This document shows, piece after piece, positions 10,469 through 63,378 of a DNA stretch of 64,000 bases. Position 1 is the stretch's first letter. Each line of letters opens with the position of its first letter. A model generated the notes under the pieces. That model made no database searches and was not told where the DNA came from. It saw only the letters and a program-made list of their open reading frames with translations. The stretch spans positions 43,783 through 107,782 of the forward strand of contig DATDFV010000230.1 in NCBI GenBank assembly GCA_036522415.1, written 5' to 3'. The stretch comes from Pyrinomonadaceae bacterium (GTDB lineage: Bacteria > Acidobacteriota > Blastocatellia > Pyrinomonadales > Pyrinomonadaceae). The position numbers were made by a program, and so were the translations under genes.

Positions 10469-10591
10469 ATCACAGATCTCAGATCCCAAATCCCAGATCT
10501 CAGAAATGGGTCCTATAGGTCCAATAAGTCCTATCTGTAATTTGAGATCTGGGATCTGGCATATGGCATCTGGGATCTGAGATCTGAGATC
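10467..10591. repeat. family A heptamer-array palindrome with an embedded family G unit
   Basis: agatcac agatctc agatccc aaatccc agatctc, then gggtcctataggtccaataagtcctat, then gagatct gggatct...gggatct gagatct gagatc. It overlaps the GT2 stop. Confidence 0.85.
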
Positions 10592-14267: not shown

Positions 14268-14294
14268 ATTGAGCTTTGTGCTTTGGTTCGTGAG

Positions 14295-14323
14295 ATAGGT
14301 CCAATATGTCCTACAGGTCCTAT
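14295..14323. repeat. family G element (ATAGGNCCT-type 9-mer units)
   Basis: ataggtccaatatgtcctacaggtcctat, 17 nt upstream of the mec start. Confidence 0.7.
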
Positions 14324-14339
14324 TCACTGATCACTAAGA

Positions 14340-14771: not shown

Positions 14772-14862
14772 TTTTTGTACTTTGTTCTTCGTGCTTTGTT
14801 CTTTGCATATCTACCGCCTTAACATAAAACAAAGCACAAAGCACCAAGTACAAAGCACAAAC
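14772..14862. repeat. family E heptamer-array hairpin (TTTGTNC arms) inside the operon
   Basis: tttgtac tttgttc ttcgtgc tttgttc tttg, then a loop, then caaagcacaaagcaccaagtacaaagcacaaa. Confidence 0.8.
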
Positions 14863-14893: not shown

Positions 14894-16345
14894 ATGCCAA
14901 TCAAAATTGCCATTCCAGCTCCATTGCGGCAGTTTGCCAGTGGACATTCCCAAATCGAAGTCGAGGCAAAGACGGCGGGCGAAGCGCTCGATCTCCTAAC
15001 TTCAACGCACGCTCCATTACGCAAGCATCTTTTCAACGAGCAGAACAGGCTCCGCAACTTCGTGAATGTTTACCTGAACGATGAGGACATTCGTCATGCT
15101 TCGGGACCTGACACTCCGTTAAAAGACGGCGATACGCTCATGATTGTGCCGTCGATTGCTGGAGGTGCGGTGATCGAAGAAGAAGTTGGACAAGCGCTTC
15201 CGGAGTTGTCCAACGAAGAGATCCTCCGTTACAGCCGGCATTTGATCATGCCTGAAGTTGGAATGCAGGGTCAGCGAAAGATGAAAGCCTCGAGCGTGTT
15301 GATGATTGGTACTGGTGGACTCGGCGCGCCCGTAGGCATGTATCTGGCAGCGGCCGGCGTCGGTCGAATCGGAATTGTGGATTTCGATGTGGTTGAGGAA
15401 TCGAACCTGCAACGTCAGATTATTCACGGGACCAAAGACCTCGGTCGCCGCAAAATCGAATCGGCCCGTGATCGGTTGCGCGACATCAACCCGCACATTG
15501 AGATCGAGACTCACGAATCGAGACTGACAAGTCAGAACGCGATGGCCCTGTTTCGAAACTACGACATCATAGTCGACGGTACAGACAATTTCCCGACTCG
15601 TTATCTCGTAAACGATGCTTGCGTGTTAACGGGTAAACCGAATGTCTACGGATCGATCTTCAGATTTGAGGGACAGGCCAGTGTGTTCTGGGCCGAGAAG
15701 GGTGCTTGTTATCGCTGTCTTTATCCGGAACCGCCGCCGCCTGGCCTGGTTCCATCATGCGCCGAGGGAGGCGTACTCGGAGTTCTGCCTGGCATTGTTG
15801 GTGCGATTCAGGCAAACGAAACGATCAAGATCATTCTCGGCTCAGAAGATATTCTCGTGAATCGTTTGTTGTTGTTTGATGCCTGGACGATGAAGTTTCG
15901 AGAGTTCAAGTTGCGGAAAGATCCGAAGTGTCCGGTTTGCGGCGAACAACCAACAATTAAAGGTTTGATTGATTACGAAGAGTTCTGCGGTTTGCGAGCG
16001 CAGCCGCCTGTTCCCGAATCAAAGTTGGAACAGATCTCTGCTATGGAACTGAATGCCCGCCGCCTGCGTGGCGACAAGATCCAGATCATCGATGTGCGCG
16101 AACCGCACGAGTTTGAGATCGCTCGTATACCGGGAACAAAACTAATTCCGCTGGGACACGTAGTGAGCAGGATGAATGAAATCGATCAGGAAGTGGACAC
16201 GATTGTTCATTGCAAGGGCGGTGTGCGCAGTGCCAAGGCAATTGAGGCATTGAAACGCGCCGGCTTCAATGGGAAGTTGATCAATCTGAAAGGTGGAATC
16301 ACCGCGTGGTCGGAAGAGGTTGACCCGCGGGTGGCGAAATACTGA
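14894..16345 (+). CDS. in-frame fusion: CysO/ThiS/MoaD-like sulfur carrier (aa 1-91, ending GG) + MoeZ/MoeB E1-like adenylyltransferase + rhodanese
   Basis: N-terminus FVNVYLNDEDIRH...MIVPSIAGG is a CysO-like beta-grasp domain. It then reads without a stop into RYSRHLIMPEVG, GTGGLGAP, CYRC/CPVC and the rhodanese HCKGGVRS. GGA GGT (15161-15166) doubles as an SD for GTG 15170. Confidence 0.8.
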   Translation: MPIKIAIPAPLRQFASGHSQIEVEAKTAGEALDLLTSTHAPLRKHLFNEQNRLRNFVNVYLNDEDIRHASGPDTPLKDGDTLMIVPSIAGGAVIEEEVGQALPELSNEEILRYSRHLIMPEVGMQGQRKMKASSVLMIGTGGLGAPVGMYLAAAGVGRIGIVDFDVVEESNLQRQIIHGTKDLGRRKIESARDRLRDINPHIEIETHESRLTSQNAMALFRNYDIIVDGTDNFPTRYLVNDACVLTGKPNVYGSIFRFEGQASVFWAEKGACYRCLYPEPPPPGLVPSCAEGGVLGVLPGIVGAIQANETIKIILGSEDILVNRLLLFDAWTMKFREFKLRKDPKCPVCGEQPTIKGLIDYEEFCGLRAQPPVPESKLEQISAMELNARRLRGDKIQIIDVREPHEFEIARIPGTKLIPLGHVVSRMNEIDQEVDTIVHCKGGVRSAKAIEALKRAGFNGKLINLKGGITAWSEEVDPRVAKY

Positions 16346-16349
16346 TCAT

Positions 16350-16376
16350 TGGTCTTTGGACTTTGGTCTTAGGCCT
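16350..16376. repeat. family F heptamer array (GGYCTTY), single arm
   Basis: ggtcttt ggacttt ggtctta ggcctt. Confidence 0.5.
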
Positions 16377-16418
16377 TGATGAGATCTAAACCTGCAAAGC
16401 AGGTGAAAGCATAAAGCT

Positions 16419-18089: not shown

Positions 18090-18265
18090 AGAGGTTGATT
18101 CCTGAAGGCGAACTTCTGTAGGGGCGTTCGCGAAGTGTGGCGACTGTCGCTTGGGACGTGAGGTTGGCGTCAATTGGACAGCTGGGCCAGACGCCTTAGG
18201 AATACTAGACTGTGGCTTTTGGCAGCGTCAATAGTTTGTTTTGACCGAATAGGCGGCCCGACATT

Positions 18266-18394
18266 CCCGGGACCGCAGGCGTCCCCGCCTGCCTCCGTCC
18301 AGCGGAACCAAACCGCGTGCCCTTGTCCGCTTGTTACTTGAACCCGGCTTGGTTCTGCTGGATGTGGGCAGGCGGGGACGCCTGCGCTCCCAGG
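18266..18394. repeat. family C REPIN (inverted REP doublet)
   Basis: cccgggaccgcaggcgtccccgcctgcc...gggcaggcggggacgcctgcgctcccagg. Each REP has a GCAGGCG-TCCC-CGCCTGC hairpin. Confidence 0.85.
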
Positions 18395-18506
18395 ACCAAC
18401 TATATTGAAATACTTAGGTTTATCGCCCTTGACTTCGTCTCGTCCAAAGTTGAGACTTAGGGCCCTCGTCTTTGTACCAAGCACTTCGAAAACAGAGAGG
18501 TATCCC

Positions 18507-21545: not shown

Positions 21546-21649
21546 AATGTCCGACGAACTTTAGTTTGTCGTCTGCGGCCAACGAGGTACTCGGAATAAC
21601 ACGAAGTCCGCAAATCCAACGAACGACAAACTAAAGTTCGTCGGACATT
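21546..21649. mobile_element. family B MITE-like element (24-bp perfect TIRs), nested inside an older palindrome 21508-21690
   Basis: TIR ATGTCCGACGAACTTTAGTTTGTCGT ... ACGACAAACTAAAGTTCGTCGGACAT. It is flanked on both sides by TTGAA. The outer arms gattgccaatttccgattgccaagtgccgatttgc and gcaaatcggcaat...cggaaatcggcaatc are inverted. Confidence 0.75.
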
Positions 21650-21685
21650 GAAGCAAATCGGCAATAGACAATCGGAAATCGGCAA

Positions 21686-22480: not shown

Positions 22481-22527
22481 AGAATTTAAGAGTTAAGATT
22501 TCAGATTGAAGATTGGTTGGGGAAACA

Positions 22528-22555
22528 GGACCTATATGATCTATTGGACCTATAG
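22528..22555. repeat. family G element between the kinase and regulator genes
   Basis: aggacctatatgatctattggacctatag. Confidence 0.7.
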
Positions 22556-23744: not shown

Positions 23745-23846
23745 ATGTCCGACGAACTTTAGTTTGTCGTGGTGATTGCCAGTCCCTCTGATACACGGCA
23801 AAGGTCTGAAATCGCACGCACGACAAACTAAAGTTCGTCGGACATT
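23745..23846. mobile_element. family B MITE-like element
   Basis: ATGTCCGACGAACTTTAGTTTGTCG ... CGACAAACTAAAGTTCGTCGGACAT. Confidence 0.8.
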
Positions 23847-23866
23847 GCTAACATTACGCCCAGGGT

Positions 23867-25050: not shown

Positions 25051-25333
25051 CGTTACCTGCCGCGGATTTGGCGATAAGAAAATTTAGAATTGCGCGCATT
25101 TAAAGGATTGACGACCTGCTCTGTGCGCCTGGTGACCTGGTTAATCATGTGATCAATTTCCGAGCGGAGAAAATGACCGCGAACAACAGGCGCACAGAGA
25201 CCTTTGATATCCAGAGTCTAAGCGCACATCGTTTCGCCGCCATTCACATTGTCACGGGGTGGGCGAATGAGTGTGTAGAATGCGGGTTTGGTGTGACGAA
25301 CCGCAGTTTGGGCAGTTGTCAGTCAAGTGAGCT

Positions 25334-25360
25334 ATAGGACCTATTCGACTCATGGGACCT
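25334..25360. repeat. family G element
   Basis: ataggacctattcgactcatgggacct. Confidence 0.55.
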
Positions 25361-25459
25361 GTTCCAACGACCATTGACCACTGACCCTTTTGCTTGTCCC
25401 TGAATCGGATGCTAACATCAAAAATCAACCCAATATCACTTGCCAAAAGAGCAAAAACC

Positions 25460-26925: not shown

Positions 26926-27009
26926 GGTCTTTGGTCTTTGGTTTTTGGTCTTTGACCTTGGGAAGATCAGAGGCCAAAGACCAAAGGCCAAAGACCAAAG
27001 TCCAAAGAC
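26926..27009. repeat. family F heptamer-array palindrome (GGYCTTY)
   Basis: ggtcttt ggtcttt ggttttt ggtcttt gaccttg...caaagac caaaggc caaagac caaagtc caaagac. Confidence 0.85.
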
Positions 27010-27011
27010 CC

Positions 27012-27965
27012 ATGCGTTTATTCCACGGAACCGATAACGCTGAAATCCAACGACCGACCGTTCTGACCCTCGGTGTGTTTGATGGTCTGCACCTGGGACA
27101 TCAACTGATCATGCGAACGGTCGTTGACAGAGCGCGTGCAGTTGGTGCCATCCCAACAGTAATTACGTTTGATCCGCATCCGCGCGCTGTTCTTCATCCA
27201 GAGTCAGCTCCACCGCTTCTGCAAACATTCGATCAGAAGATCGAAGCCTTTGGAGTGCTCGGTATCGAACAGACAATCGTGGTTCGGTTCACAAAACAGT
27301 TTGCTTCCATTCAGGCCGATCAATTCCTGCGAGACGTCGTGAAGGATCGATTGCATGCAAAAGAGGTTTACCTCGGCAAAGGCTTCGCATTTGGGCACGA
27401 CCGCGAAGGAAACATCGACTTATTGCGCAAGCTTGGGGATGAACTCGGCTTTGTGGCCGGTGAAGTGCCCGAGGTTTGTCTTCGAGGCAAACGTGTCAGC
27501 TCGAGCAAAATCCGTGAGCTGCTGACGCGCGGTCAAGTGAATCTGGCGAGGCGCATGTTAGGTCGCCCCTACGGCGTGGAAGGCCTTGTGGAAAGAGGGG
27601 CGGAGCGCGGCCATAAACTGGGGTTTCCGACAGCCAACCTGCACCCGCATAACCGCGTCATACCCAGGAACGGTGTTTACGTGACGGGAACGTTAATTGA
27701 AGGACAATGGCGGCGCAGCGTGACAAATGTTGGGCTGCGACCAACGTTTGGCGAAGCGACGGAACCTTCGGTTGAGACATACGTAATGAAATGGGACGGG
27801 GATTTGTACGGTGACGTCGTCCGCGTCCGTTTTTTGTATAGGCTCCGCGACGAGCGTAAGTTTGCTTCGATTGACGAGCTGAAAAGTCAGATTGAGCGAG
27901 ACGTCGATCGCGCGAACAGTTATTTTGAGAGGGCCGGCACAAAACATATGCTGGCCGTGATTTGA
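27012..27965 (+). CDS. ribF: bifunctional riboflavin kinase / FAD synthetase
   Basis: VFDGLHLGHQ nucleotidyltransferase motif plus a C-terminal riboflavin-kinase domain. The ORF track starts at 26916 inside the repeat. The ATG at 27012 is preferred. Confidence 0.85.
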   Translation: MRLFHGTDNAEIQRPTVLTLGVFDGLHLGHQLIMRTVVDRARAVGAIPTVITFDPHPRAVLHPESAPPLLQTFDQKIEAFGVLGIEQTIVVRFTKQFASIQADQFLRDVVKDRLHAKEVYLGKGFAFGHDREGNIDLLRKLGDELGFVAGEVPEVCLRGKRVSSSKIRELLTRGQVNLARRMLGRPYGVEGLVERGAERGHKLGFPTANLHPHNRVIPRNGVYVTGTLIEGQWRRSVTNVGLRPTFGEATEPSVETYVMKWDGDLYGDVVRVRFLYRLRDERKFASIDELKSQIERDVDRANSYFERAGTKHMLAVI

Positions 27966-28157: not shown

Positions 28158-29855
28158 ATGGAAACAACACAAGCATTAGTAAAACTCGAAAGCAGTAACG
28201 GGCAAAAGGTCCTTGCTCCAGTGGTAAGCAGCCCGAAACAAGTACAGGCACCTCCACCATTAACCGACGAATTAGTCGATCAACTTCTCGATGGTCGCGG
28301 TTTGCATGGCTGGTTACGTGCTGCGCGCGTCTCAATAGTGCTTGGACTTCTGTCGTTGTATCTATTTCTCGACTCCTACGACATCCGAGCAGATTTCAAC
28401 CGCCGGACAATTCAAAGACTTCGCGAGCAGGCGCGTCAAACTAACCGTCGCGAACGCTTGAATCTGTGGATGCGCAGTTGGGTTTATGAGGGCCTCGATC
28501 GGTTCATCAGAATTCTGCGCTATATAACCTTCAGAGGTGCCGAAGGATCAGCACGAAAAGATGCGAGACTTCAGAAACAAGCTGTCTGGTTACGCCAGAG
28601 TCTCATCAACCTTGGTCCCACGTTCATAAAGATCGGCCAGGCACTAGGTACTCGTGCTGATTTGTTACCGCTTCCGTATGTGAAAGAGCTGGCGCTGCTT
28701 CAGGATCAAGTTCCCGCTTATTCAACCGCTGAGGCTTTCGCACGAATCGAATCGGAACTCGGCCGTCCAGTGCACGAAGCCTATACGGAGATTGATAGTG
28801 AGCCTATTGCTTCCGCTTCACTCGGCCAGGTATATCGCGCTCGGCTTTCAAGTGGCGAAGAAGTGGCGGTGAAGGTGCAGCGTCCGGCATTAGCCGAAAC
28901 CATCAGCATCGATGTCGCGATTCTGTATCGCCTGGTGAAGTTGACCAATCGGTTCATGCCGAAGGCAAACGAGAACGCTGATTGGGAAGGGATGCTCCAC
29001 GAGTTTTACTCGACTATCTTTGAAGAGCTTGATTACGTGAAGGAGGGCCGAAACGCCGACAGATTCCGTTATAACTTTCGCACCTGGCGCCCGATTCGAG
29101 TGCCGAAAGTTTTCTGGTCACATACTACTGCGCGCGTTTTGACACTTGAGTTTATTCACGGCACGAAGGTCGTCGACATCGAAGGTCTTCGAGCGCGTCG
29201 TATTTCAGCAGTGAAAGTCAATCGGCTCCTGGTTCGAACGTATCTGAAACAGTTGCTCGAAGATGGTTTCTTTCACGCTGACCCACACCCGGGGAATCTG
29301 CTCGTGATGGACAGTGGTCATCTCGCTTTTTTCGACTTCGGAATGGTCGGACGAATTTCACCTAAGCTCCAATCGCAGATGATCGACGCGTTTTTCCATG
29401 TCGTGGGTCGGGATGTGCAAGGCCTGGGTCAGGACATTATTAATCTCGACTTTTTGAAACCCGGAGTCGATCCGGAAACGGTGCGACCCGTTGTCGAGCG
29501 GCTTTTCAAGAGTTATTTGAATCTCAAACTCGGCGACGTCAACTTCAAAGAACTCACGTACGATCTCGCGGAAGTGATTTATGAGTATCCTTTCCGCTTG
29601 CCGGCTAATTTCACTTACGTGATGCGAGCCTTGATGACTCTCGAGGGTATAGCGATCGTGACAGATCCGGGATTCAGTTTCTTTGAGACCGCGAAGCCTT
29701 ACGCAAAGGAATTCATGCTGCGACGCGAAGGTCGCATCTTTGGTAGGTTGGTGTTGGACAAACTAACCGGACGCGAAAACGGCGATAACAAGATTGCCTG
29801 GTCGCGTGTGTGGAAATTGACAAAGATGGCGGCACAAATGTACCTCGAGAAATGA
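28158..29855 (+). CDS. ubiB: ABC1/UbiB-family atypical kinase
   Basis: ASASLGQVYRARL, the kinase core and the HADPHPGN motif. Confidence 0.85.
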   Translation: METTQALVKLESSNGQKVLAPVVSSPKQVQAPPPLTDELVDQLLDGRGLHGWLRAARVSIVLGLLSLYLFLDSYDIRADFNRRTIQRLREQARQTNRRERLNLWMRSWVYEGLDRFIRILRYITFRGAEGSARKDARLQKQAVWLRQSLINLGPTFIKIGQALGTRADLLPLPYVKELALLQDQVPAYSTAEAFARIESELGRPVHEAYTEIDSEPIASASLGQVYRARLSSGEEVAVKVQRPALAETISIDVAILYRLVKLTNRFMPKANENADWEGMLHEFYSTIFEELDYVKEGRNADRFRYNFRTWRPIRVPKVFWSHTTARVLTLEFIHGTKVVDIEGLRARRISAVKVNRLLVRTYLKQLLEDGFFHADPHPGNLLVMDSGHLAFFDFGMVGRISPKLQSQMIDAFFHVVGRDVQGLGQDIINLDFLKPGVDPETVRPVVERLFKSYLNLKLGDVNFKELTYDLAEVIYEYPFRLPANFTYVMRALMTLEGIAIVTDPGFSFFETAKPYAKEFMLRREGRIFGRLVLDKLTGRENGDNKIAWSRVWKLTKMAAQMYLEK

Positions 29856-29903
29856 TCCCAGATCCCAGATCGCAGATCTCAGAAGAATGATCACAGATTT
29901 CAG
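29854..29903. repeat. family A heptamer array, left arm (AGATCYC orientation)
   Basis: gatccca gatccca gatcgca gatctca g.... Confidence 0.7.
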
Positions 29904-29912
29904 GTTACAGTC

Positions 29913-30615: not shown

Positions 30616-30732
30616 TGAATCCCCTTGCTCCTGATGGAATAAGCAGGTTGAGAGTTAATGCTGGGCCATTATCATCGATTTGCCGGAAATCAGCTCTTGT
30701 GATTCTTTGTCTTTTTTGTAACGGCTGCCGAG

Positions 30733-30849
30733 TGTCCGACGAACTTTAGTTTGTCGTGGTGGTCCTTACTTGAGTCAGTAGGCATCGGACTTCTGTAATC
30801 ATTTGGATCATAGTTTGGAGACGTCGACAAACTAAAGTTCGTCGGACAT
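30733..30849. mobile_element. family B MITE-like element
   Basis: GTGTCCGACGAACTTTAGTTTGTCG ... CGACAAACTAAAGTTCGTCGGACAT. Confidence 0.8.
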
Positions 30850-30880
30850 CAAAAAAAGAGGCGGACAGAGTGCCCGCCTC
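30850..30880 (-). terminator. intrinsic terminator of the flotillin-like gene
   Basis: On the minus strand: GAGGCGG, a 9-nt loop, CCGCCTC, followed by a T8 run. It lies 25 nt past the stop. Confidence 0.7.
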
Positions 30881-33797: not shown

Positions 33798-33892
33798 TTG
33801 GTCCGGCTAACGGGAAGTTTTGTTGATATCCGTTGCCGCGTATCTGTTTATACGAGAACGGCAGGGAAAAGTTCAAGGGGTTCAATCAGGCC

Positions 33893-34012
33893 CCGTCGTC
33901 CTGGGACCGCAGGCGTCCTCGCCTGCCCGTGTCCCACCTAACACTCTAGGATTAAATCAGAATTGGTTCTTTTCGCCGCGGGCGGCGGGGACGCCTGCGG
34001 TCCCAGCACTAC
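33893..34012. repeat. family C REPIN immediately 3' of the RAYT gene
   Basis: cgtcgtcctgggaccgcaggcgtcctcgcctgcccgtgtccc...gcgggcggcggggacgcctgcggtcccagcactacg. Confidence 0.85.
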
Positions 34013-34015
34013 GAT

Positions 34016-34657
34016 TCACTTTTCAACGATCCACGCGCCTGGCTTGCCGCCGCGCTCTCGGAACCAGGCACTGCTAAAAGGCCAATCCCTTGGATTCGCG
34101 CAGAGTTTTGCCTTGACCGGATTGTTTTCAATGTAGCGAAGAGCTTTATAGAAATGTTCTTCATTGCGAATCTCACGATCGTAATACTCTGCCATCCAAA
34201 ACGAACCTTTGCGATGAAGCAGTTTGTTTGCCTCATGAGCAGTGAATGACTTATGTGCCTGCATGATCGTTTCGAGATCGGTGTTTTCGAAACGAGTCAT
34301 CAACGAATGTTCATGATTAGGCATCACGCACCAGGCGAACAGCGTGTAACGAACGTCATCGTATTTGAGCAACGAGTCTTGCACTAACTTCGCCATGCGT
34401 TGATCGCGTAGATAGCATTCACCATATCCCTGATCGAGATACTTATCGATTCGCTGTCGCATTATCACGCGTCGATGTTCGTCGGTTAAGTGTTGCAGTT
34501 CGTTTTCCCAACGTTCCCTAACCTTTACCGGGATGCTGCCCGCGAGATGAAGATTGATTGTTTGTGGTTTTATTCGACCATCAAAATGAGGTAAGTAGCC
34601 ACGTGTATGCCAGCCTGCTTCATGCAGTACATGTTGGGGATAATCTTTTAGACTCAT
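34016..34657 (-). CDS. REP-associated tyrosine transposase (RAYT, IS200/IS605 Y1 HUH family)
   Basis: RGYLPHFDG, HUH motif VMPNHEHSL, and Y motif YIENNPVKA...DWPFSS. It is flanked on both sides by family C REPINs. Start at MSLKDY (AAGGAAG upstream). The ORF track extends to 34843 through a REP. Confidence 0.85.
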   Translation of the reverse strand: MSLKDYPQHVLHEAGWHTRGYLPHFDGRIKPQTINLHLAGSIPVKVRERWENELQHLTDEHRRVIMRQRIDKYLDQGYGECYLRDQRMAKLVQDSLLKYDDVRYTLFAWCVMPNHEHSLMTRFENTDLETIMQAHKSFTAHEANKLLHRKGSFWMAEYYDREIRNEEHFYKALRYIENNPVKAKLCANPRDWPFSSAWFRERGGKPGAWIVEK

Positions 34658-34726
34658 GTGAGGTATTCGACTTCCTTGTGAGGTTGATAAAGCTGGCCCG
34701 AGTATAACACGAGCGATCCTCCTGGA

Positions 34727-34839
34727 ACCGCAGGCGTCCTCGCCTGCCCGCGTCAAGAAGAACCAACTCCATCTGCAAATAATCCTGGTTAGGTTGGACA
34801 CGGGCAGGCGGAGACGCCTGCGGTCCCAGGACGATGGGG
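34727..34839. repeat. family C REPIN 5' of the RAYT gene
   Basis: cctcctggaaccgcaggcgtcctcgcctgcccgcgtc...ggacacgggcaggcggagacgcctgcggtcccaggacgatgggg. Confidence 0.85.
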
Positions 34840-34846
34840 CCAAATT

Positions 34847-37320: not shown

Positions 37321-37662
37321 CCGTCGAACAGAAGGCACTATCCCCTAGCACACGAAAGCTCTTTTGTCGGAGCGCGTCCGTCCTCGGCCGCCCCCGTCCA
37401 ACAGAACCATCACGTAATCCTCATCACTAATGCTGAGATTGATGGAAAAAGAACTCGAGCATCTGAATTTGTACAGAAAAGGAGATCCGAATGTTAACGA
37501 GATGGTTCTGTTGGACGGGGGCGGCCGAGGACGGACGCGCTCCGACTGAAGAGCTTTCGTGTGTTAAGGGATGGGGCTTCTGATCGATGGGGGCGGCCGA
37601 GGACGACCGCGCTCCGACAGGAGAGCTTTCGTGCGTTAGTGGATGGTGCCTTCTAGTCGACG
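37321..37662. repeat. family D REPIN-like composite (one REP unit, spacer, two inverted units)
   Basis: ccgtcgaacagaag...ctcttttgtcggagcgcgtccgtcctcggccgcccccgtccaacag, followed by two inverted units. REP core hairpin GCGGCCG-TCCTC-GGCCGC. Confidence 0.8.
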
Positions 37663-37867
37663 GTAATTTCACAGTACTAACCGAAGATGCAGAGACGAAC
37701 CAAATCTGGGATCTGAAATACTTTGGCAAGCAACCTATCATCCACAAATCACGCTCAAACACTCCAGAATCCAGGCCCACGGCCCTGATAACCTGCTTGC
37801 CGAAGCAGGGGTGCCCGTGTAAAGTAACGAGCGTTTCAAACCCCGCTCTCCCTGTAAACAAAACCTG

Positions 37868-40267
37868 TTGGAGGTCATCCGGATGTCCAGTGAAAGCATC
37901 CCAGCAAACGAGTACCCAGACCGCGTAGGATTCAAACCCGACAACCCATATCTGGCGACATTTCGACCTTACATACCGGCTGGCGTTCGGTTGCGCGAAT
38001 TGACTCCGATACCGCTGGTGATGGGCACCGTACTTGGAATCATCTTCGGAGCCTCGTCACTTTACCTTGTCTTGAAAGTTGGATTAACCGTCAGCGCGTC
38101 GATTCCCGTCGCCGTCATTTCGATCACACTCTTTCGCGTACTTTCGAAGCTCGGACTGCGCGACGCCACGATTCTCGAAAACAACATCGTTCAGACCGCT
38201 GGGTCTGCCGGGGAATCAATTGCATTTGGTATCGGTGTAACTATGCCGGCCATTCTAATCCTCGGCTTCGATCTTGAATTCACGAGAGTGATGCTCGTTG
38301 CAGTGCTCGGCGGATTGCTCGGAATCCTCATGATGATCCCGTTGAGAAGAGCGCTGATAGTTGCTCAGCATGGTTACTTGAAATATCCGGAAGGAACCGC
38401 ATGCGCCGAAGTGCTAAAAGCCGGCGCTTCTGATGAGTCACGGGCTGCCGCTGCGGAGGGTGCAAAAGAGAGCGGAATCATTGATGAAGCCACGACGGGC
38501 GGCAAGACCATAATTACTGGCTTTGGCATCGGGTTTTTATATTACGGCATCGAGCAAATCTGGAAGACGTGGAAAGAATACCCCACGAAAGTTTTCGGTA
38601 AGCCGTTCGAAGGCGGCTCGATTTCGATTGAGAACAATCCCGCACTTCTTGGTGTCGGCTACATCATTGGCCCACGAATCGCCTCTATTATGGTCGGCGG
38701 CGGTGTTCTTGCCTACCTCGTTTTGATTCCGGCGATTAAATACTTCGGCGGCGGTTGGATGACTCCACTTGCTCCCGAAACCACTCACCTGATCAAAGAC
38801 ATGAGCGTCACTCAAATCCAAAAGGGCTACATCCTTTACATCGGTGCAGGCGCTGTCGCTGCGGGTGGAATTATTAGCCTGTTCAGATCGCTGCCAGTTA
38901 TCTGGAGTGGATTGAAAGGTGGATTGGCTGACTTAAGAACTTCTGGTAGTGCCTCAACGGCAAACGCTCCTCGAACAGATCAGGATCTGTCGATGAAGTT
39001 CGTTTTGGGCGGAATCGTCGCATTGATTCTCGTGATCATGGCGGTGCCGCAGCTGAATCTGCGCTTCAACATACTAGGCGCGCTCCTGATCATCGCGTTT
39101 GGTTTCTTGTTCGTGACGGTCTCCTCTCGGTTAACAGGCGAAGTTGGATCGTCTTCAAACCCAATTTCCGGAATGACGGTGGCGACGTTGCTGCTGACAT
39201 GTTTGGTGTTCCTCATCATTAAGTGGACAGCACCTCCGTATTTTGTCACTGCGTTGTCGATTGGAGGAATCGTTTGTATTGCCGCCTCGAACGGTGGAAC
39301 GACGTCGCAGGATCTGAAAACAGGTTTCCTGGTTGGCTCCACTCCGAAGTTTCAGCAAATTGCAATCCTGGTTGGAGCATTAACATCGGCAATTGCTCTG
39401 GGCCCCATTTTGTTGGCGATGAACCAATCGGGCAGTGTTTATGTGCCCGTCGCGCAGAATAAAGATTTTTCGTTCCCCGCTGGTTTCCACTTCAATTCAG
39501 ACGAGTATGTACAGAGTGGCGGGGCTGCCAAGCGAGAAGCGTTGCAAGGTGGTCAGGCAAGTTCCGACAGCAATCAGTATTACGTAGTTCACAAGACCTC
39601 GACAGCATATGGTCCGCCGGGACGCTACCTCGTAAACGATCAGGGCGTGCCGGTGTATCTCGCCGATCCCGGAATAAATGGTATTTACGACAAAGTGCCC
39701 GGCACGAATCAAACAGTCGCGAAGTTTACGGCTCCCAAAGCGACTCTGATGTCTTACATCATCAAAGGCATTTTGAGTCGAGAGCTTCCATGGGGTCTCG
39801 TGCTCCTTGGAGTGTTCATTACGATCGTTTTAGAGCTGAGTGGTGTGCCCTCGCTTGCGTTTGCAGTCGGGGTTTATTTGCCAATTTCAACTTCTGCGCC
39901 GATCTTCGTGGGTGGTGTTGTGCGGTGGTTAGTCGATAAATACCTGCGAAAGAAACCAGAGAACGCTCGCCTTACTGAAGAAGAAATGGCCGCCGAGACT
40001 GATAAAAGTCCGGGAGTGTTGCTCGCATCAGGTTACATTGCCGGCGCAACCTTGGCAGGTGTCATCTATGCTTTCCTGAATTTAAACGAGAAGATCGTTA
40101 CGAAGCTGAAAGGCTATGAAGACTGGGCCACCAATAACAACCCATTCTTTGAAGGACCGCATTCAGACTGGATGGGACTAATTCCGTTTCTGATATTGAC
40201 TGTCTTACTTTACTTTGTTGGCCGGGAATTGTTGCTGACACCGAAACCCTACCGGAGAGAAGAGTGA
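37868..40267 (+). CDS. OPT-family oligopeptide transporter
   Basis: About 16 TM helices with an OPT-superfamily architecture and a large periplasmic insert. Confidence 0.85.
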   Translation: MEVIRMSSESIPANEYPDRVGFKPDNPYLATFRPYIPAGVRLRELTPIPLVMGTVLGIIFGASSLYLVLKVGLTVSASIPVAVISITLFRVLSKLGLRDATILENNIVQTAGSAGESIAFGIGVTMPAILILGFDLEFTRVMLVAVLGGLLGILMMIPLRRALIVAQHGYLKYPEGTACAEVLKAGASDESRAAAAEGAKESGIIDEATTGGKTIITGFGIGFLYYGIEQIWKTWKEYPTKVFGKPFEGGSISIENNPALLGVGYIIGPRIASIMVGGGVLAYLVLIPAIKYFGGGWMTPLAPETTHLIKDMSVTQIQKGYILYIGAGAVAAGGIISLFRSLPVIWSGLKGGLADLRTSGSASTANAPRTDQDLSMKFVLGGIVALILVIMAVPQLNLRFNILGALLIIAFGFLFVTVSSRLTGEVGSSSNPISGMTVATLLLTCLVFLIIKWTAPPYFVTALSIGGIVCIAASNGGTTSQDLKTGFLVGSTPKFQQIAILVGALTSAIALGPILLAMNQSGSVYVPVAQNKDFSFPAGFHFNSDEYVQSGGAAKREALQGGQASSDSNQYYVVHKTSTAYGPPGRYLVNDQGVPVYLADPGINGIYDKVPGTNQTVAKFTAPKATLMSYIIKGILSRELPWGLVLLGVFITIVLELSGVPSLAFAVGVYLPISTSAPIFVGGVVRWLVDKYLRKKPENARLTEEEMAAETDKSPGVLLASGYIAGATLAGVIYAFLNLNEKIVTKLKGYEDWATNNNPFFEGPHSDWMGLIPFLILTVLLYFVGRELLLTPKPYRREE

Positions 40268-40278
40268 GTGCCCGGACC

Positions 40279-40336
40279 TCAGATCGCAGATCCCAGATCT
40301 CAGAATCAGGTTCCCTTGGATCTGAGATCTGAGATC
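40279..40336. repeat. family A heptamer-array palindrome
   Basis: agatcgc agatccc agatctc agaatc...ggatctgagatctgagatc. Confidence 0.8.
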
Positions 40337-40361
40337 AAGTAATAAATCAGCTTCATTCTTT

Positions 40362-41138: not shown

Positions 41139-41147
41139 AGCCCTCTT

Positions 41148-41238
41148 ATCCTGGGACCGCAGGCGTCCCCGCCTGCCCGCGTCCAACCTAAGCCCATATT
41201 GGTAACGGGGGCAGGCGGGGACGCCTGCGGTCCCAGCA
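41148..41238. repeat. family C REPIN
   Basis: cctgggaccgcaggcgtccccgcctgcccgcgtcc...gggggcaggcggggacgcctgcggtcccagc. Confidence 0.85.
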
Positions 41239-41372
41239 CGACAGTCGCCTCACATCTCCGATATTTCTATTGCGTCACTCAAGCCCGTTTTCTAGAATGG
41301 ACTTGCGGCCAAATCCCCCATCGCTGCTCATTGCCCTTCCTCAACGGTCCGAGAAAACTTCTTGGTACCTAA

Positions 41373-43058: not shown

Positions 43059-43268
43059 ACCCGTCGAACAGAAGTCAGTGTCCCTCACACACGAAGACCT
43101 CTTCTGTCGGAGGGCGGCCGTCCTCGGCCGCCCTGTCGAATAGAACTCAGGTACAACGGCAGTGGTTGCTCCGTTTCGGTCTCGCTATTCGGTGGGGGCG
43201 GCCGAGGACGGCCGCGCTCCGACAGAAGAGCTTTCGTGTGATAGGGAGAGTGGCTTCTGTTCGACGGG
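43059..43268. repeat. family D REPIN-like doublet
   Basis: cccgtcgaacagaag...ctcttctgtcggagggcggccgtcctcggccgccctgtcgaatag and inverted ggtgggggcggccgaggacggccgcgctccgacagaagag...tctgttcgacggg. Confidence 0.8.
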
Positions 43269-44552
43269 CGCTCGCACCATCGCTTCGCGGTCCCACAACG
43301 ACCTCGTTAGGAACCAAATGATCCCGGGCAATAAAAAGAAACTGCCAATTCCAATGGTTACTATTCGTGGTGAAATGCTGAACCGATCGAGTAATTCGCC
43401 CGTGACGTAATTCGAAGCCGCCATTGTCAACGTCAGTAGAGCTAACTCCGCGGCGAACACGCGACCTCTGAAATTGTCCTCAACACTTCGCTGCAATAAC
43501 ACTGTGGAAAACACCCAGAGAATACTGCCGCCCATATGCGCAATTCCAAGGACAATCAAAGCAAAAACAAAACTAGTTGCCGCACCGAACGCGATATAAC
43601 CAACGCCGCCGATCAGGAACGCAATCCCTATCGAAACCGTCAGGCTACTCTTTCCCTCGCCGGCCAGGCGCCGCGCTGCAATTGGCCCCACAGCAGTGCC
43701 TATTCCTCTCGCAGCGAAAAGAACACCGATTCCAGTGGCCGCACTTTTACCGACCGGAAAAATGCGTTCCCCGAAAACTGCCAGTAACGTCATTATTCCT
43801 CCGCCCAGGCCCCACGCTGGTTTCACCAGGAGCAGGGCGAGGACGCCAGGGCGTCGTTTGACGTAGCGCGCGCCCTCCAGCGTTTCGGTAATACCCAGTG
43901 CCTGTAAAAGGCTTAACTTGCGTCGTTCACGCTTCGGTCTCTTTGGCAAGCGCACATTGAAAATCAACACCGCTGAGAGCACATAACTTAACGCGTCAAG
44001 AATGAATGCAGCGTTGGTACCGAACCAGCCGGTGATTATTCCACCAATTGCCGCGCCTAAAGTCAGCATCACTGACCATGTCACCGACGATATTGAGTTG
44101 GCAGCTACCAACTCGCGATCGGCAACGAGAGAAGGTACGGCAGCAGTCTTCGCTGGTTCAAAGAATGTGGAGAGCGCAAGTTGGAGGACTGTTAAGACGT
44201 AGATAATCCAAAGTTGATCTGCCCGCCTGACAAACAGGAACCCAAGCACAACCAGTGCGCGCAACAGGTCCGACCAGATCATGATGGTACGCCGACTGAA
44301 CCGGTCGGCGACCACACCGGAAACAGGGCCGAATAGAAAGCTCGGCACGAACCGAGCGACGAGGAGTAATCCCACGTCGCGCCCGGAGCCGGTCAGATTG
44401 AGGATGATCGTGTAGAGCGCAATCGTGTCGAACCAGTCGCCCATCTGGCTGACGACTTGACCCAGCCACAACTGTCTAAAGTTACGATTGCGGCGAAGCA
44501 GATCGATATAGCCGACCGTGTACTCCGGAGTTTTGAAAGGTTTGATTGCCAA
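43185..44552 (-). CDS. MFS transporter, C-terminal tail encoded by a family D REP
   Basis: 12 TM helices. The last ~25 codons (...VEQKPLSLSHESSSVGARPSSAAPTE) read into repeat D2. Confidence 0.75.
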   Translation of the reverse strand: MAIKPFKTPEYTVGYIDLLRRNRNFRQLWLGQVVSQMGDWFDTIALYTIILNLTGSGRDVGLLLVARFVPSFLFGPVSGVVADRFSRRTIMIWSDLLRALVVLGFLFVRRADQLWIIYVLTVLQLALSTFFEPAKTAAVPSLVADRELVAANSISSVTWSVMLTLGAAIGGIITGWFGTNAAFILDALSYVLSAVLIFNVRLPKRPKRERRKLSLLQALGITETLEGARYVKRRPGVLALLLVKPAWGLGGGIMTLLAVFGERIFPVGKSAATGIGVLFAARGIGTAVGPIAARRLAGEGKSSLTVSIGIAFLIGGVGYIAFGAATSFVFALIVLGIAHMGGSILWVFSTVLLQRSVEDNFRGRVFAAELALLTLTMAASNYVTGELLDRFSISPRIVTIGIGSFFLLPGIIWFLTRSLWDREAMVRAPVEQKPLSLSHESSSVGARPSSAAPTE

Positions 44553-44566
44553 CAGTCAAAGTCCCA

Positions 44567-44685
44567 ATGTCCGACGAACTTTAGTTTGTCGTTGCGACCA
44601 ACTCAGATCGATGATTGATATGGGAACGCAGAAAACTCACGCCGTGTGATTCGCGCACCACGACAAACTAAAGTTCGTCGGACAC
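44567..44685. mobile_element. family B MITE-like element
   Basis: ATGTCCGACGAACTTTAGTTTGTCG ... CGACAAACTAAAGTTCGTCGGACAC. Confidence 0.8.
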
Positions 44686-45076
44686 CTTGTCAAACCGTTG
44701 TTCACAACCACCTTGACCGAAATTATCAATCTGACCTGTCAACTCGCTCAGACTGACCAGCAATGATGAATCAGTCCGCTGAAAAACGAGTTTTCACTCG
44801 CATTTCTCGCCTTATCTCAACGGCACACCACTTGAGAATAAGAAAAGGGCGGCTCAGAGGCTTCCGAGCCTCGCGGGCTCTCCGCACGGAGCTCGTAGCC
44901 GCCAAGTTTCAAATGTCTTGTCATCTCACCCAGCGCGGCGGCTCGAAACAAAAGGGCCGCCACCTTGCCCAATTCGCCGGAGGCGCATCTGAGTTGCTCC
45001 CAGATCGTCTCCGGCAACCTACGTTGAGATGACTTGCTGGAGTTGAGAACAGAAGGTCGAGTTCGCAGGAGAACAA

Positions 45077-47089
45077 ATGCTGCTATCCCCCTCCCAACAC
45101 AACCGCTCAGGGGTGGTTAATGCCTCTCTGCGTGACTCTTTGCTTGTTTGGTGGCAGAAATATCAACTTGCTGTTTCGTGGACATTACTGGTTGTACCGC
45201 TAGCTGCCGCCATGTTCTACAGCACTACTCTTCAGCCTCTCTTGCCCTATCTCTTCATTTCTCCAGTATCGATATTCGCAGGCTACCTGATTTATCGCGG
45301 CACTGTTTCACGATTAAAGATAAAAACAAGCGAGGTTGAAGCGCTAAGCAAACTTCATCTCGCAACCGCCGAGGCGCTTGCGACAGCAATCGACGCAAAG
45401 GATCAGATTACACATTGTCACGTTCGCCGCGTGCAGGTTTACGCCGCGCGGATGGGCGAGGTTTTTGGCCTGTCAGATAACGAAATCTCAGCCTTGAAAG
45501 CTGGTGCGGTGCTGCACGACATCGGCAAGCTCGCCGTGCCTCCACATATTTTGAACAAACCGGGGCGGCTGACCCCCGCAGAGTTTGAGAAGATGAAGAT
45601 TCATACGGTTGTGGGTGCGCAAATCCTGAGTCGGGTGGACTTTCCTTATCCCATCGTACCGATAATCCGTCATCATCACGAACGCTGGGACGGCCGCGGA
45701 TATCCGGATCGCCTGAAGGGTGAACAGATCCCAATAACGGCAAGAATCATTTCTGTCGTTGATTGCTTTGATTCGGTTCGTGAAGACCGGCCGTTTCGTC
45801 GTGGTATGACAATCGACGAGGCCACTGCATTGCTGCGACGTGGCTCGGGGATTCATTTCGACCCTCACGTCGTGGATCAATTTCTGAGACATCTGTCCGA
45901 GTTTGACGCGGAAATAGCAGCTCTTGGTCTACAGCCTGCATCGACCGGCTCAGTTCATGATCAGCCAATGCATCTCAGTGACGTGGATATGACACAGACG
46001 CGAGAACGCGGCTCTTACATGGCCTACGATCAGATCAAGAAAGCACACGGCGAGGTCTACGCCCTGTATGAGATTGCGCGAACCTTCGGAACGTCGCTGG
46101 ATCTTGAACACACGCTCGAGAGTATGGTCGATAAGGTTGGACACGTCGTTCCCTTTGATAGCTGCGTCGTTTATTTCTACGATGAACTAAAGGGTTACGC
46201 GACTGCACGTCACGCTGTGGGCAAATACTCAGACCTGCTTAAAGGTCGATGTATTGCTCCAGGCGAGGGCGTGACAGGTTTTGCTCTCGCAAATCGTAGT
46301 GCTGTCAATCAACTTCATCCCAGCCTCGACTTTACCGATCTAAACCCGGCCGCCGGAATCAAATTCCAGGCAATGGCTTCATTGCCGTTGTTCAAAGATG
46401 ATTTGTTGCTCGGTGCCCTGTCAGTCTATTCGAACGATCTCGAGCAATATACTCACGATCACATGCGCCTGCTCGAGACCGTCACGAGACTCGCATCGGA
46501 TGCTCTTGCCAACGCAATGCAACACGCCGAAGCCGAGTCGCATGCGCTTACCGATGCGATAACCGGCTTGCCAAACTCTCGTTCTCTGTCAGTTCGCTTT
46601 GAGGAAGAGGCTGCGCGTGCACGACGAACGGGACGTAGCTTCCAGGTTGTGATGCTCGATCTGGACGAGTTCAAGAACGTCAACGACAGCTATGGCCACA
46701 AGCTTGGCGACAAGATGCTTCGAGAAGTTGCCTCATTGATTCAAAATCAACTTCGCGAATACGACTTTCTATGTCGTTATGCGGGTGATGAATTCGTTGC
46801 GCTTGTGCAGGAAGTTGTCGGTCTGCAAGTGGACGAACTCTGTCTGCGCATCGAAAATGTGGTTTCAAAGTTCTCTTTATCTGTTGGTCGCAATAAGCAG
46901 GCGCGCGTCGGCATCAGCATTGGAACCGCCACGTTTGGCACCGACGGCGACACGTTGGATCAGCTACTCAACGCCGCGGACGATAAGATGTACAGAATGA
47001 AGTCGATCCATCGCCTTGAGCGGAGTATGCCACCATTGCCACCGGCGTCAGATCCGAAGGAAGTATTGCCAGGAGCGGCGAGTAGTTAA
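45077..47089 (+). CDS. membrane-anchored HD-GYP phosphodiesterase + GAF + GGDEF (AGDEF variant) c-di-GMP signalling protein
   Basis: HD motif (HDIGK) and HHERWDGRGYP (GYP motif), a GAF segment, and RYAGDEFVAL in the GGDEF domain. Confidence 0.8.
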   Translation: MLLSPSQHNRSGVVNASLRDSLLVWWQKYQLAVSWTLLVVPLAAAMFYSTTLQPLLPYLFISPVSIFAGYLIYRGTVSRLKIKTSEVEALSKLHLATAEALATAIDAKDQITHCHVRRVQVYAARMGEVFGLSDNEISALKAGAVLHDIGKLAVPPHILNKPGRLTPAEFEKMKIHTVVGAQILSRVDFPYPIVPIIRHHHERWDGRGYPDRLKGEQIPITARIISVVDCFDSVREDRPFRRGMTIDEATALLRRGSGIHFDPHVVDQFLRHLSEFDAEIAALGLQPASTGSVHDQPMHLSDVDMTQTRERGSYMAYDQIKKAHGEVYALYEIARTFGTSLDLEHTLESMVDKVGHVVPFDSCVVYFYDELKGYATARHAVGKYSDLLKGRCIAPGEGVTGFALANRSAVNQLHPSLDFTDLNPAAGIKFQAMASLPLFKDDLLLGALSVYSNDLEQYTHDHMRLLETVTRLASDALANAMQHAEAESHALTDAITGLPNSRSLSVRFEEEAARARRTGRSFQVVMLDLDEFKNVNDSYGHKLGDKMLREVASLIQNQLREYDFLCRYAGDEFVALVQEVVGLQVDELCLRIENVVSKFSLSVGRNKQARVGISIGTATFGTDGDTLDQLLNAADDKMYRMKSIHRLERSMPPLPPASDPKEVLPGAASS

Positions 47090-47127
47090 TAGGACCTATA
47101 TGACCAATAGGACCCATATGACCTATT
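47088..47127. repeat. family G element (9-mer period)
   Basis: aataggacct atatgacca ataggaccc atatgacct att. Confidence 0.75.
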
Positions 47128-47268
47128 GCCGCTGAGACTGACCAGTGCCACCCCCGATCATTCATCTTGACACAATCCGTCCTCATCGCTTTCAATCGAG
47201 CCTGAGCACTCTTCCAAGTGCTTGCCCCGTAGGGATCCTGCAACTTGTTAGTTCCGGCCCGTTGAAGC

Positions 47269-53793: not shown

Positions 53794-53813
53794 TTCGTTC
53801 GTGGTCTTGGCTT

Positions 53814-53914
53814 AGATCTCAGATCCCAGATCCCAGATCCCAGATCTCAGATTCCAGATGGACCCGCAGATCTGCGTTCTGAGATCTGGGATCTGTGATC
53901 TGAGATCTGAGATC
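53814..53914. repeat. family A heptamer-array palindrome between kynU and kynA
   Basis: agatctc agatccc agatccc agatccc agatctc agattcc...gagatct gggatct gtgatct gagatct gagatc. Confidence 0.85.
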
Positions 53915-55171: not shown

Positions 55172-55344
55172 CTTTAGAGGCTCTTGCAAAAAGGCCCCAC
55201 GGTCCTGGGAGCGCAGGCGTCCTCGCCTGCCCGTGTCCCGTCTAACCAACAACCATTGAAGGAGTTGGTTGCGCTGGACACGGGCAGGCGAGGACGCCTG
55301 CGCTCCCAGGACCGTGGGGCCTTTTTGTAAGAGCCTCTTTAGCT
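55172..55344. repeat. family C REPIN, about 170-bp near-perfect palindrome
   Basis: ctttagaggctcttgcaaaaaggccccacggtcctgggagcgcaggcgtcctcgcctgcccgtgtcc...ggacacgggcaggcgaggacgcctgcgctcccaggaccgtggggcctttttgtaagagcctctttag. Confidence 0.9.
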
Positions 55345-60360: not shown

Positions 60361-60362
60361 CA

Positions 60363-63059: not shown

Positions 63060-63296
63060 TCCGTCGAACAGAAGCACCCAAATTGGATATACGCAAGCTC
63101 CTCTGTCGGAGCGCGGCCGTCCTCGGACGCCCCCGTCGAACAGAACCACCAAAATCGGATCGCGTAAGTCAGCGGCTGAGAGAAAGTTGAACAGTGTATT
63201 CCAGTTCAAGTGGTTTTGTTCGACGGGGGCGGCCGAGGACGGCCGCGCTCCGACAGAAGAGCTTGCGCGTATCCGATTCCGATGCTTCTGTTCGAC
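63060..63296. repeat. family D REPIN-like doublet
   Basis: ccgtcgaacagaag...ctcctctgtcggagcgcggccgtcctcggacgcccccgtcgaacag and inverted cgacgggggcggccgaggacggccgcgctccgacagaagag...ttctgttcgacg. Confidence 0.8.
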
Positions 63297-63378
63297 GCGG
63301 TGCCTCGAGAAACGCACGCCGAAGTAGCACACCGTCAAAATGCTCAAAAATCCAGGGCCAAACGCCCAAAGTCAAGAC

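Follow-up and report, generated by a model that had tools for sequence, protein, structure and literature searches.

REP-associated tyrosine transposases (RAYTs) that are flanked by repetitive extragenic palindromic (REP) elements are well established (PMC3733652, PMC6006769, PMC5581495), and so are inverted doublets of REPs (REPINs) as the mobilized unit. The canonical REP carries a 5′ GT[AG]G tag at a distance of 0 to 2 nucleotides (nt) from the foot of its hairpin (PMC6006769, PMC3733652), and the Escherichia coli enzyme, TnpA_REP, has been crystallized on its REP hairpin (PDB entry 4ER8). In the survey of Bertels et al. (2017), 16-mers of high abundance in the flanks served as the criterion for REP association, and they were found with no RAYT groups other than 2 and 3 (PMC5581495). 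Here, we analyze a stretch of 64,000 nt (the window, to which all coordinates refer; G+C content, 51%) of the Pyrinomonadaceae contig DATDFV010000230.1, in which a RAYT gene (34016 to 34657) lies between doublets of a dispersed repeat, family C, and in which a second repeat of the same class, family D, is also present. Our data make it quite probable that the locus is a REPIN-RAYT system, in which a vertically inherited RAYT at a single locus serves family C and a paralogue probably serves family D. REPIN populations comprise tens to hundreds of copies per genome, and the genomes of Pseudomonas hold several RAYT paralogues, each of which is paired with its own REPIN family; to our knowledge, studies of REPIN-RAYT systems are almost confined to the Gammaproteobacteria. 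Although the type of system is already known, we know of no description of a RAYT-REPIN link in the Acidobacteriota or in this subfamily of enzymes.

A RAYT gene in a Pyrinomonadaceae contig

The open reading frame (ORF) at 34016 to 34657 on the minus strand is intact and encodes a protein of 213 amino acids (aa) that begins with MSLKDYP. A preliminary description, made from the nucleotide sequence of the window, had recognized a RAYT in it by the motifs RGYLPHFDG, VMPNHEHSL, and YIENNPVKA...DWPFSS, and all three are present in the translation, as GWHTRGYLPHFDG (which includes RGYLPHFDG), CVMPNHEHSL, and RYIENNPVKAKLCANPRDWPFSS (YIENNPVKA...DWPFSS). The identification itself also stands. The NCBIfam equivalog NF047646 (REP_Tyr_transpos) matches residues 86 to 195 with 90.1 bits (cut-off, 80; E = 1.2e-25), the Pfam domain Y1_Tnp is matched with 31.5 bits (cut-off, 23), and the sole significant relative by sequence in the PDB is TnpA_REP of E. 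coli (4ER8; E = 9e-7), which is the top match by fold as well. In the sequence alignment, H115-E116-H117 coincides with H-M-H of 4ER8, and Y175 of YIENNP coincides with Y115 of YIYINP in the E. coli enzyme, which is the class 2 signature Y---NP. Across 96 relatives, the histidines of the HUH motif and the tyrosine of Y---NP show little or no variation, and close homologues are already annotated automatically as "REP element-mobilizing transposase RayT" or "REP-associated tyrosine transposase." In sum, ORF 34016-34657 is a Y1 HUH enzyme of the RAYT/TnpA_REP family. Its subfamily comprises 412 clusters at 50% identity with E ≤ 1e-30 and 4082 with E ≤ 1e-10. A longer ORF of 275 aa, which starts at a TTG at 34843 and reads through the upstream REPIN, was considered and rejected; the shorter start of the 213-aa protein is preferred because every homologue begins at the ATG at 34657.

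Dispersed REP doublets around the gene

The hairpin sequence GCAGGCG-N4-CGCCTGC has nine matches in the window, compared to 0.02 expected from shuffled sequences. Eight of these hairpins form doublets (starting at 18275/18368, 34730/34804, 41159/41211, and 55213/55284), and the ninth, at 33909, is the intact half of a further doublet. Family C thus consists of five inverted doublets that can be aligned over their whole length, all of them intergenic and three of them at a distance of 6 to 20 kb from the gene. A REP of this family is made up of the tag CTGGGACC joined to the hairpin GCAGGCGTCCTCGCCTGC, with the stem GCAGGCG, the loop TCCY, and the stem CGCCTGC; CTGGGA(C/G)C precedes each hairpin on the 5′ side and CCG(T/C)GTCC follows each on the 3′ side. 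The tag element GGA(G/C) is located 1 nt from the hairpin foot (CTGGGACC followed directly by GCAGGCG) and therefore in the same position as GTAG, with G instead of T as its second base. As single-stranded DNA, each of the five doublets folds into one long hairpin; folding energies range from −39 to −82 kcal/mol and z-scores from −6.5 to −19.5, and none of 200 shuffled sequences folded as well.

Family C REPINs had been reported to bracket the gene, and doublets were indeed found on both sides of it. The one on the 3′ side (33884..34013) ends 3 bp past the stop codon and is an inverted repeat with arms of 30 nt that are 90% complementary (−42.4 kcal/mol; z = −7.5). Its left REP has the tag CTGGGACC at 33901-33908 and the hairpin at 33909-33926, and its right REP (33980-34006) is degenerate and lacks one stem base. 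The doublet on the 5′ side (34716..34846; hairpins at 34730-34747 and 34804-34821) is located about 60 to 70 bp upstream of the ATG and has 50-nt arms that are 80% complementary (−39.1 kcal/mol; z = −6.5). The three further copies of the preliminary description were recovered as dispersed REPINs at 18257..18398 (hairpins at 18275-18292 and 18368-18385; −52.4 kcal/mol; z = −9.3), at 41141..41241 (hairpins at 41159-41176 and 41211-41228; −50.7 kcal/mol; z = −11.8), and at 55192..55321 (hairpins at 55213-55230 and 55284-55301; −81.6 kcal/mol; z = −19.5), the last of which is a nearly perfect palindrome of 130 nt. Its statement that every half contains GCAGGCG-TCCY-CGCCTGC needs two amendments: the stem is perfect in nine of the ten halves, the exception being the right REP at 33980-34006 with its missing base, and the loop of the hairpin at 34804-34821 is TCTC (on the other strand) and not TCCY.

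Fold and recognition residues of the enzyme

A structural model of the RAYT built with AlphaFold2 from 96 diverse relatives had a predicted local distance difference test (pLDDT) score of 91.7; a model from 21 close homologues had a pLDDT of 57. In a Foldseek comparison of the model with the PDB, 4ER8_A ranked first (E = 1.9e-8; target-normalized template modeling [TM] score, 0.71), followed by the IS200 entry 2F4F (E = 7e-5; TM score, 0.58), and the TnpA proteins of IS200, IS608, and ISDra2 matched with E values of about 1e-4. As modeled, the fold is nearer to TnpA_REP than to TnpA of the IS200 type. Relative to the 165-aa chain of 4ER8, the model has an additional N-terminal β-hairpin (residues 16 to 25, which is the RGYLPHFDG motif) and two helices (residues 44 to 75) inserted between β1 and αA, ahead of helix 86-98, which was equated with αA of 4ER8 by its position. 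We found no description of the N-terminal β-hairpin and the two-helix insertion at β1-αA for any published subclass; subclass 2.3 carries an insertion of 10 aa at the β1-αA place (PMC6006769).

The central residue of the HUH motif is Glu116 and, hence, not hydrophobic. Among the 120 closest homologues (clustered at 90% identity), this position is occupied by Ser in 40, Glu in 29, Thr in 21, and Val in 26, and in the more distant set of 150 representatives of 50%-identity clusters, Val is found in 117. Since Ser, Glu, or Thr is present in 90 of the 120 close homologues and Val in 117 of the 150 distant ones, the glutamate is a derived feature of the clade. Residues of E. coli TnpA_REP that are reported to contact GTAG include W94, Q95, E100, H101, and R104 (PMC6006769). 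W94 and R104 are kept here as W154 and R164, E100 is replaced by Asp and H101 by Arg, as in subclasses 2.5 and 2.7 (PMC6006769), and Q95 is replaced by Met at a position that is variable in the family. The altered residues fit with the changed tag (GGAS, where S is G or C, instead of GTAG). It is imaginable, although we would rather doubt it, that the RAYT belongs to a subclass beyond those of Bertels et al. (2017) and Quentin et al. (2018) that is large and common in soil Acidobacteria; the marks of this tentative subclass would be the RGYLPHFDG β-hairpin, the two-helix insertion at β1-αA, an HUH center of Glu, Ser, Thr, or Ala, and the GGAS tag.

Co-occurrence of hairpins and RAYT homologues

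To place the locus in a wider frame, we used a set of 86 homologue loci, 80 of which came from a metagenome scan with a family alignment (48 to 82% identity) and 6 from look-ups of the exact protein. A hairpin of the same design, that is, a GGA(G/C)C tag, a 7-bp stem of the form GCNNNC(G/A), and a pyrimidine loop, is present within 400 bp of the gene in 72 of the 86 loci and in 55 of the 66 that have at least 200 bp of sequence on both sides. Hairpin density is 3.50 per kb beside the gene and 0.09 per kb at distances of more than 600 bp, a ratio of about 40, which overstates the enrichment relative to intergenic DNA because the distant sequence is mostly coding. The tag also emerged when it was left out of the search: with one hairpin per locus taken, positions −5 to −1 were G, G, A, (G/C), and C in 71, 71, 69, 62, and 72 of 73 loci. 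This search required perfect 7-bp stems and loops of pyrimidines only, and therefore, the pairing of the stems is in itself no evidence. In the stem, G, C, and C are found without exception at positions 1, 2, and 6 across the 73 loci, positions 3, 4, 5, and 7 vary to give 16 stem types, and the loops are mostly TCC, TCT, TCCT, TCCC, or CCCT.

When the proteins are arranged in a neighbor-joining tree, loci that share a stem type group together. The GCAGGCG stem is found in the HEH clade (Glu at the HUH center) that holds the window protein, and separate clades have GCGGGCG, GCGGACG, GCCCGCA, GCAAGCG, and GCGGACA. Such tracking of the RAYT tree by stem type is what one would expect of enzyme lineages that each maintain a hairpin of their own. 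The link between the RAYT and family C that had been proposed for the window is supported by the hairpins of the same design at 72 of the 86 loci and by this co-clustering. The residue at the HUH center was also considered as a marker of the REP type and rejected, since locus L202 has HTH yet is flanked by repeats in which CTGGGACC is joined to GCGGGCG.

Two further observations concern the distribution of the repeats. Downstream of several RAYT homologues, the REPs occur not as a single doublet but as tandem arrays with 3 to 6 units of about 35 to 125 bp (L119, 6641-7000; L120, 4660-4920; and L193). The 19-mer of the C hairpin, GCAGGCGTCCYCGCCTGCC, recurs in metagenome-assembled genomes (MAGs) of distant phyla with GTAGC or GTGGG tags: its carriers include L005, L023, L028, and others (a Thermoanaerobaculia MAG), L017, L050, L071, L080, and L101 (Thermoguttaceae MAGs), L102 (Armatimonadota), and L067 (Calothrix), and in these it frequently makes up half of a double hairpin whose other half is, for instance, GCGGACG-TCCT-CGTCCGC. 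These occurrences suggest that REPs with CG-closed YCCY loops are a very widespread design.

A second hairpin type and its probable enzyme

Family D has the tag GTCGGAGC, the stem GCGGCCG, and the loop TCCT, and its seven hairpins are found within 37374-37610, 43114-43215, and 63113-63246. They make up a cluster of three REPs at 37352..37666 (hairpins starting at 37374, 37521, and 37593), which belongs to the same REP class but is not a substrate candidate of the window RAYT, and two REPINs, at 43092..43271 (hairpins starting at 43114 and 43198) and at 63091..63302 (hairpins starting at 63113 and 63229). The 5-nt loop TCCTC that had been given for family D has to be corrected, as the hairpin is GCGGCCG-TCCT-CGGCCGC with a 7-bp stem and a 4-nt loop. 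Both L120 and L202 lack the cluster at 37352-37666 in the orthologous intergenic region, which indicates a gain over evolutionary time or, as a less parsimonious alternative, two losses.

Is family D served by the same enzyme as family C? The two families are alike in tag core, stem length, and loop, and in relatives they share even the 3′ extension GTCGAACAGAACCA, which D has in the window and which is borne by a C-type REP in L120. Furthermore, the 64-kb window holds a single RAYT, and some hairpin positions are invariant in all stem types. The window RAYT might therefore read the shared features (the GGAS-C tag; G1, C2, and C6 of the stem; and the YCCY loop) and mobilize both families. We regard this as improbable in view of a related MAG, GCA_036518995.1 (Pyrinomonadaceae SMAG_U400), which encodes two RAYT paralogues that are each flanked by their own hairpin type only. 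P0027 (locus L119; HEH; 66% identical to the window protein) has seven C-type and no D-type hairpins in its flanks, and P0101 (locus L201; HTH; 58% identical to the window protein) has seven D-type and no C-type hairpins. At least 38 further C hairpins are found in the same MAG at no fewer than 17 other, dispersed loci. Locus L152, from a metagenome, encodes a RAYT that is 81% identical to P0101 and shares its HTH clade; behind this gene lies a D repeat that is 88% identical over 112 bp to the window at 37504-37614, and the tracking of RAYT clades by stem type across the 73 loci also speaks against one enzyme for both families. On the evidence of these flanks, a D-specific RAYT paralogue exists in relatives of the window organism. 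The second RAYT that the preliminary description had postulated for family D has thus been found in a related genome, and it is likely that the genome of the window organism, too, encodes a RAYT serving family D outside the window.

Residence and inheritance of the gene

A tblastn search found one RAYT copy in the window. The identical protein is encoded on four contigs from soil metagenomes, which are 99.7 to 99.8% identical to the window and have the gene at one and the same locus with the same neighbors. In L120, L116, and L202, the gene occupies the orthologous site, as in the window, between an M14 peptidase gene and the genes for a 219-aa protein (hyp219) and a Band_7 protein. The identities of RAYT, Band_7, and M14 to their counterparts in the window are 82, 94, and 73% in L120; 72, 90, and 75% in L116; and 62, 88, and 71% in L202. 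Hence, the RAYT diverges roughly in step with its neighbors, and its divergence is similar to that of the adjacent M14 gene. The ratio of nonsynonymous to synonymous substitution rates (dN/dS) was 0.09 for the window RAYT and its orthologue in L120 (82% identity), the one RAYT pair for which dS is not saturated. As judged from synteny and selection, the RAYT gene is vertically inherited, resident at one chromosomal site, and functional.

In one of these lineages, the gene has changed its orientation. L116 5971-6631 corresponds to window 34030-34684; the flanking genes are the same, but the RAYT gene and its leader are inverted between them, which is the outcome expected of recombination between inverted flanking REPs. 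The REPs beside the L116 gene have the stem variant GCGGGCG/CGCCCGC, i.e., a change from A:T to G:C at stem position 3.

We give very little credence to the idea that the gene and the flanking hairpins as its ends form an autonomous IS200-like element (an insertion sequence), with the dispersed repeats as its miniature derivatives. It is true that the outermost arms of the two gene-flanking doublets form an inverted repeat of 59 nt (90% complementary) that encloses the whole gene-hairpin unit, that this unit is inverted in L116, that both RAYT genes of GCA_036518995.1 are at other loci, and that the fold is common to the TnpA proteins of IS200 and IS608. However, four lineages have the gene at a common chromosomal site, where it diverges with its neighbors, the window contains a single copy, and the four contigs with the exact protein show one locus. 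The tyrosine motif is Y---NP of class 2 and not Y---Q of class 1 (PMC6006769), and neither TnpB nor any other transposition gene adjoins the RAYT gene, the neighbors being the M14 peptidase and the 219-aa protein, which has no Pfam match. Moreover, among the matches listed, a RAYT gene is present at none of at least 111 loci with a C hairpin.

Leader of the gene and possible other roles for the hairpins

Upstream of the gene, a conserved leader (34658..34706, minus strand) is shared by homologues of 58 to 100% identity (L001, L120, L116, L119, L202, L195, L122, and L201). In the window, it starts with the −10-like element TATACT (34701-34706) and continues with ACCTCAC...GAAGTCGAATACCTCAC-ATG, and the layout in the homologues is TATACT(G), ACCTCAC, and then GAAAGTYGA..CTCAC abutting the ATG, with no GGAGG resembling a Shine-Dalgarno sequence. 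This leader may combine a promoter with a regulatory leader. A generic sigma-70 scan did not report its −10-like element, a generic scan of the RAYT locus for promoters and terminators gave nothing above the expectation from shuffled sequences, and an Rfam scan of the whole window gave no matches.

Since the upstream doublet abuts this leader with its putative −10 element, one could argue that the repeats are structural or regulatory hairpins of the host, such as terminators or mRNA stabilizers, that are independent of the enzyme, the RAYT being domesticated for another role and the repeats beside it regulating the RAYT gene. Every family C copy is intergenic, no recent mobility is seen among the four population contigs, and the window has other families of intergenic palindromes with no transposase nearby, all of which would agree with host hairpins. 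Nevertheless, we think this explanation, including a regulatory reason for the adjacency of gene and repeats, very unlikely. The hairpins are not followed by runs of T, apart from one weak terminator-like site, and a pure terminator role does not predict that the stem sequence co-diversifies with the enzyme lineage. In addition, the D cluster was gained in one lineage, and the closest solved relative of the enzyme is a nuclease that was crystallized on its own REP hairpin.

Model and implications

By analogy with E. coli TnpA_REP, we infer that the RAYT binds, cleaves, and mobilizes family C. In our model, the enzyme would bind the family C hairpin (7-bp stem plus tetraloop) in single-stranded DNA and would read the tag CTGGGA(C/G)C beside the hairpin foot. 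Cleavage would proceed via a 5′-phosphotyrosine intermediate at Y175, H115 and H117 would hold the metal, and REP doublets (REPINs) would be excised and reinserted. The copies beside the gene would then be old, resident members of the REPIN population.

Several findings are at odds with this model or are not explained by it. Among the four population contigs, which are nearly identical to the window, no gain or loss of a REPIN was found, and since there is no difference in REPIN presence or absence among them, there is no sign of recent movement. Fourteen of the 86 homologue loci lack a hairpin of the shared design, some of them with short flanks. Of the five family C doublets, the two that flank the gene are the most degenerate, and the tag of the family departs from the canonical GT[AG]G. 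Finally, the residue that separates the HUH histidines in class 2 enzymes is reported to be L, V, I, F, Y, or M (PMC6006769), and Glu116 is outside this range; with a glutamate in the center, activity cannot be assumed, although the HEH clade is under purifying selection.

Were the tentative subclass real, stem positions 3 to 5 and 7 would serve it as a natural code of specificity, diversifying together with the enzyme and letting two orthogonal RAYT-REPIN pairs share one genome. If the model is true, Pyrinomonadaceae, a dominant yet hardly cultured soil family, would offer a clean, vertically inherited REPIN-RAYT system, and the homologues would supply dozens of natural enzyme/hairpin pairs that differ at only four stem positions. 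Such a set would be a resource for the rules by which Y1 HUH enzymes read hairpins and for engineered orthogonal tags on single-stranded DNA. For annotation, many intergenic palindromes of Pyrinomonadaceae MAGs would be explained. The clade also shows that an enzyme under purifying selection can have Glu, Ser, or Thr in the "hydrophobic" center of its HUH motif.

Other features of the window

The window contains further repeats. Arrays of the heptamer CAGATCY followed by its inverse, RGATCTG, form long intergenic palindromes at 7898-8012, 10466-10592, 29845-29911, 40266-40340, and 53799-53929; this family is unrelated to REP families C and D, and no gene was seen to go with it. A second family of heptamer palindromes, (GGTCTTT)n ... 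(AAAGACC)n, is intergenic as well (14760-14806, 16348-16380, 26930-27020, 60244-60371, and 62987-63019). At four places (21547-21650, 23745-23847, 30732-30851, and 44567-44687), ATGTCCGACGAACTTTAGTTTGTCG and its complement are paired as inverted doublets with a distance of about 65 to 80 bp; these resemble a REPIN family with no GC-rich hairpin. Short intergenic arrays of the 9-mers ATAGGACCT or AGGTCCTAT are found at 10506-10534, 14294-14324, 22524-22554, 25333-25363, 47088-47136, and 61654-61684. Among the genes of the window, one at 14894-16345 encodes a MoaD-MoeB-rhodanese fusion of 483 aa that is 84 to 87% identical to proteins of Pyrinomonadaceae MAGs. This identity marks the window as DNA of an uncultured member of the Pyrinomonadaceae (Acidobacteriota, Blastocatellia), and an origin from a planctomycete, which had been considered at first, was rejected on its account.

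Relation to described REP systems

The closest match by sequence and by fold is TnpA_REP of E. coli (YafM; 4ER8; subclass 2.2/Bertels group 2), with which the window RAYT shares the HUH and Y---NP motifs. As in the REPtron of E. coli, REP doublets flank the gene and also occur dispersed, and the gene is chromosomal and single copy (here, one copy in the window). Unlike TnpA_REP, to which it is only 18% identical in the structural alignment, the window RAYT is 48 aa longer, has the N-terminal β-hairpin (GWHTRGYLPHFDG) and the two β1-αA helices, and carries HEH instead of HMH; Q95, E100, and H101, which read GTAG in E. coli, are M, D, and R. The substrates differ as well: the E. coli REP is a long, bulged hairpin with GTAG, whereas that of the window has a plain stem of 7 bp, a loop of 4 nt, and GGAS as its tag.

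The REPIN-RAYT systems of Pseudomonas fluorescens and Pseudomonas putida (GTAG-1; subclass 2.5/group 3) likewise have short, GC-rich REPs and vertical inheritance. We take the tag of the P. putida REP to run into GGAGC, as GTAGGAGC, in the published 35-bp consensus. The replacement of E100 by Asp and, in part, of H101 by Arg is also common to subclass 2.5 and the window RAYT (PMC6006769). In contrast to the Pseudomonas enzymes, the RAYT described here is from the Acidobacteriota, is longer, with insertions, and has NHxH where theirs have DH[LF]H and YIENNP where theirs have YI[VI]ANP, and conservation of the tag does not extend to its GT.

Subclass 2.4 (Quentin et al. 2018; Bertels group 4) has the signature NH[IFV]H, WQ, and YIxNNP, with a variable insertion between β3 and αC (PMC6006769). 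The window RAYT resembles it, as compared by this published signature, in YIxNNP and the form NHxH (PMC6006769, Table 1), and the subclass is distributed over various nonproteobacterial phyla. The window RAYT differs in having NHEH, WM instead of WQ (the residue after Trp is variable in the family), an insertion at β1-αA instead of β3-αC, no REP inside the gene, and REPs that are short and neither long nor of the "double foot" type.

With TnpA of the IS200/IS605 family (IS608 and ISDra2), the window RAYT has the Y1 HUH fold in common, and those enzymes recognize a subterminal hairpin and an adjacent guide sequence (PMC6006769). The structural match is weaker, however (E of about 1e-4; TM score of 0.5 to 0.6), Y---NP replaces Y---Q, and the gene has one copy in the window, is syntenic, and is not accompanied by TnpB, while the repeats also occur where there is no gene. 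Within the same phylum, the TIRYTs of Acidobacteria (Di Nocera et al. 2013) are homologues of tyrosine transposases that have inverted repeats in their flanks (PMC3733652). The flanks of TIRYTs were described as long terminal inverted repeats with no relation to REPs (PMC3733652), whereas those of the window RAYT are REP doublets of a dispersed family.

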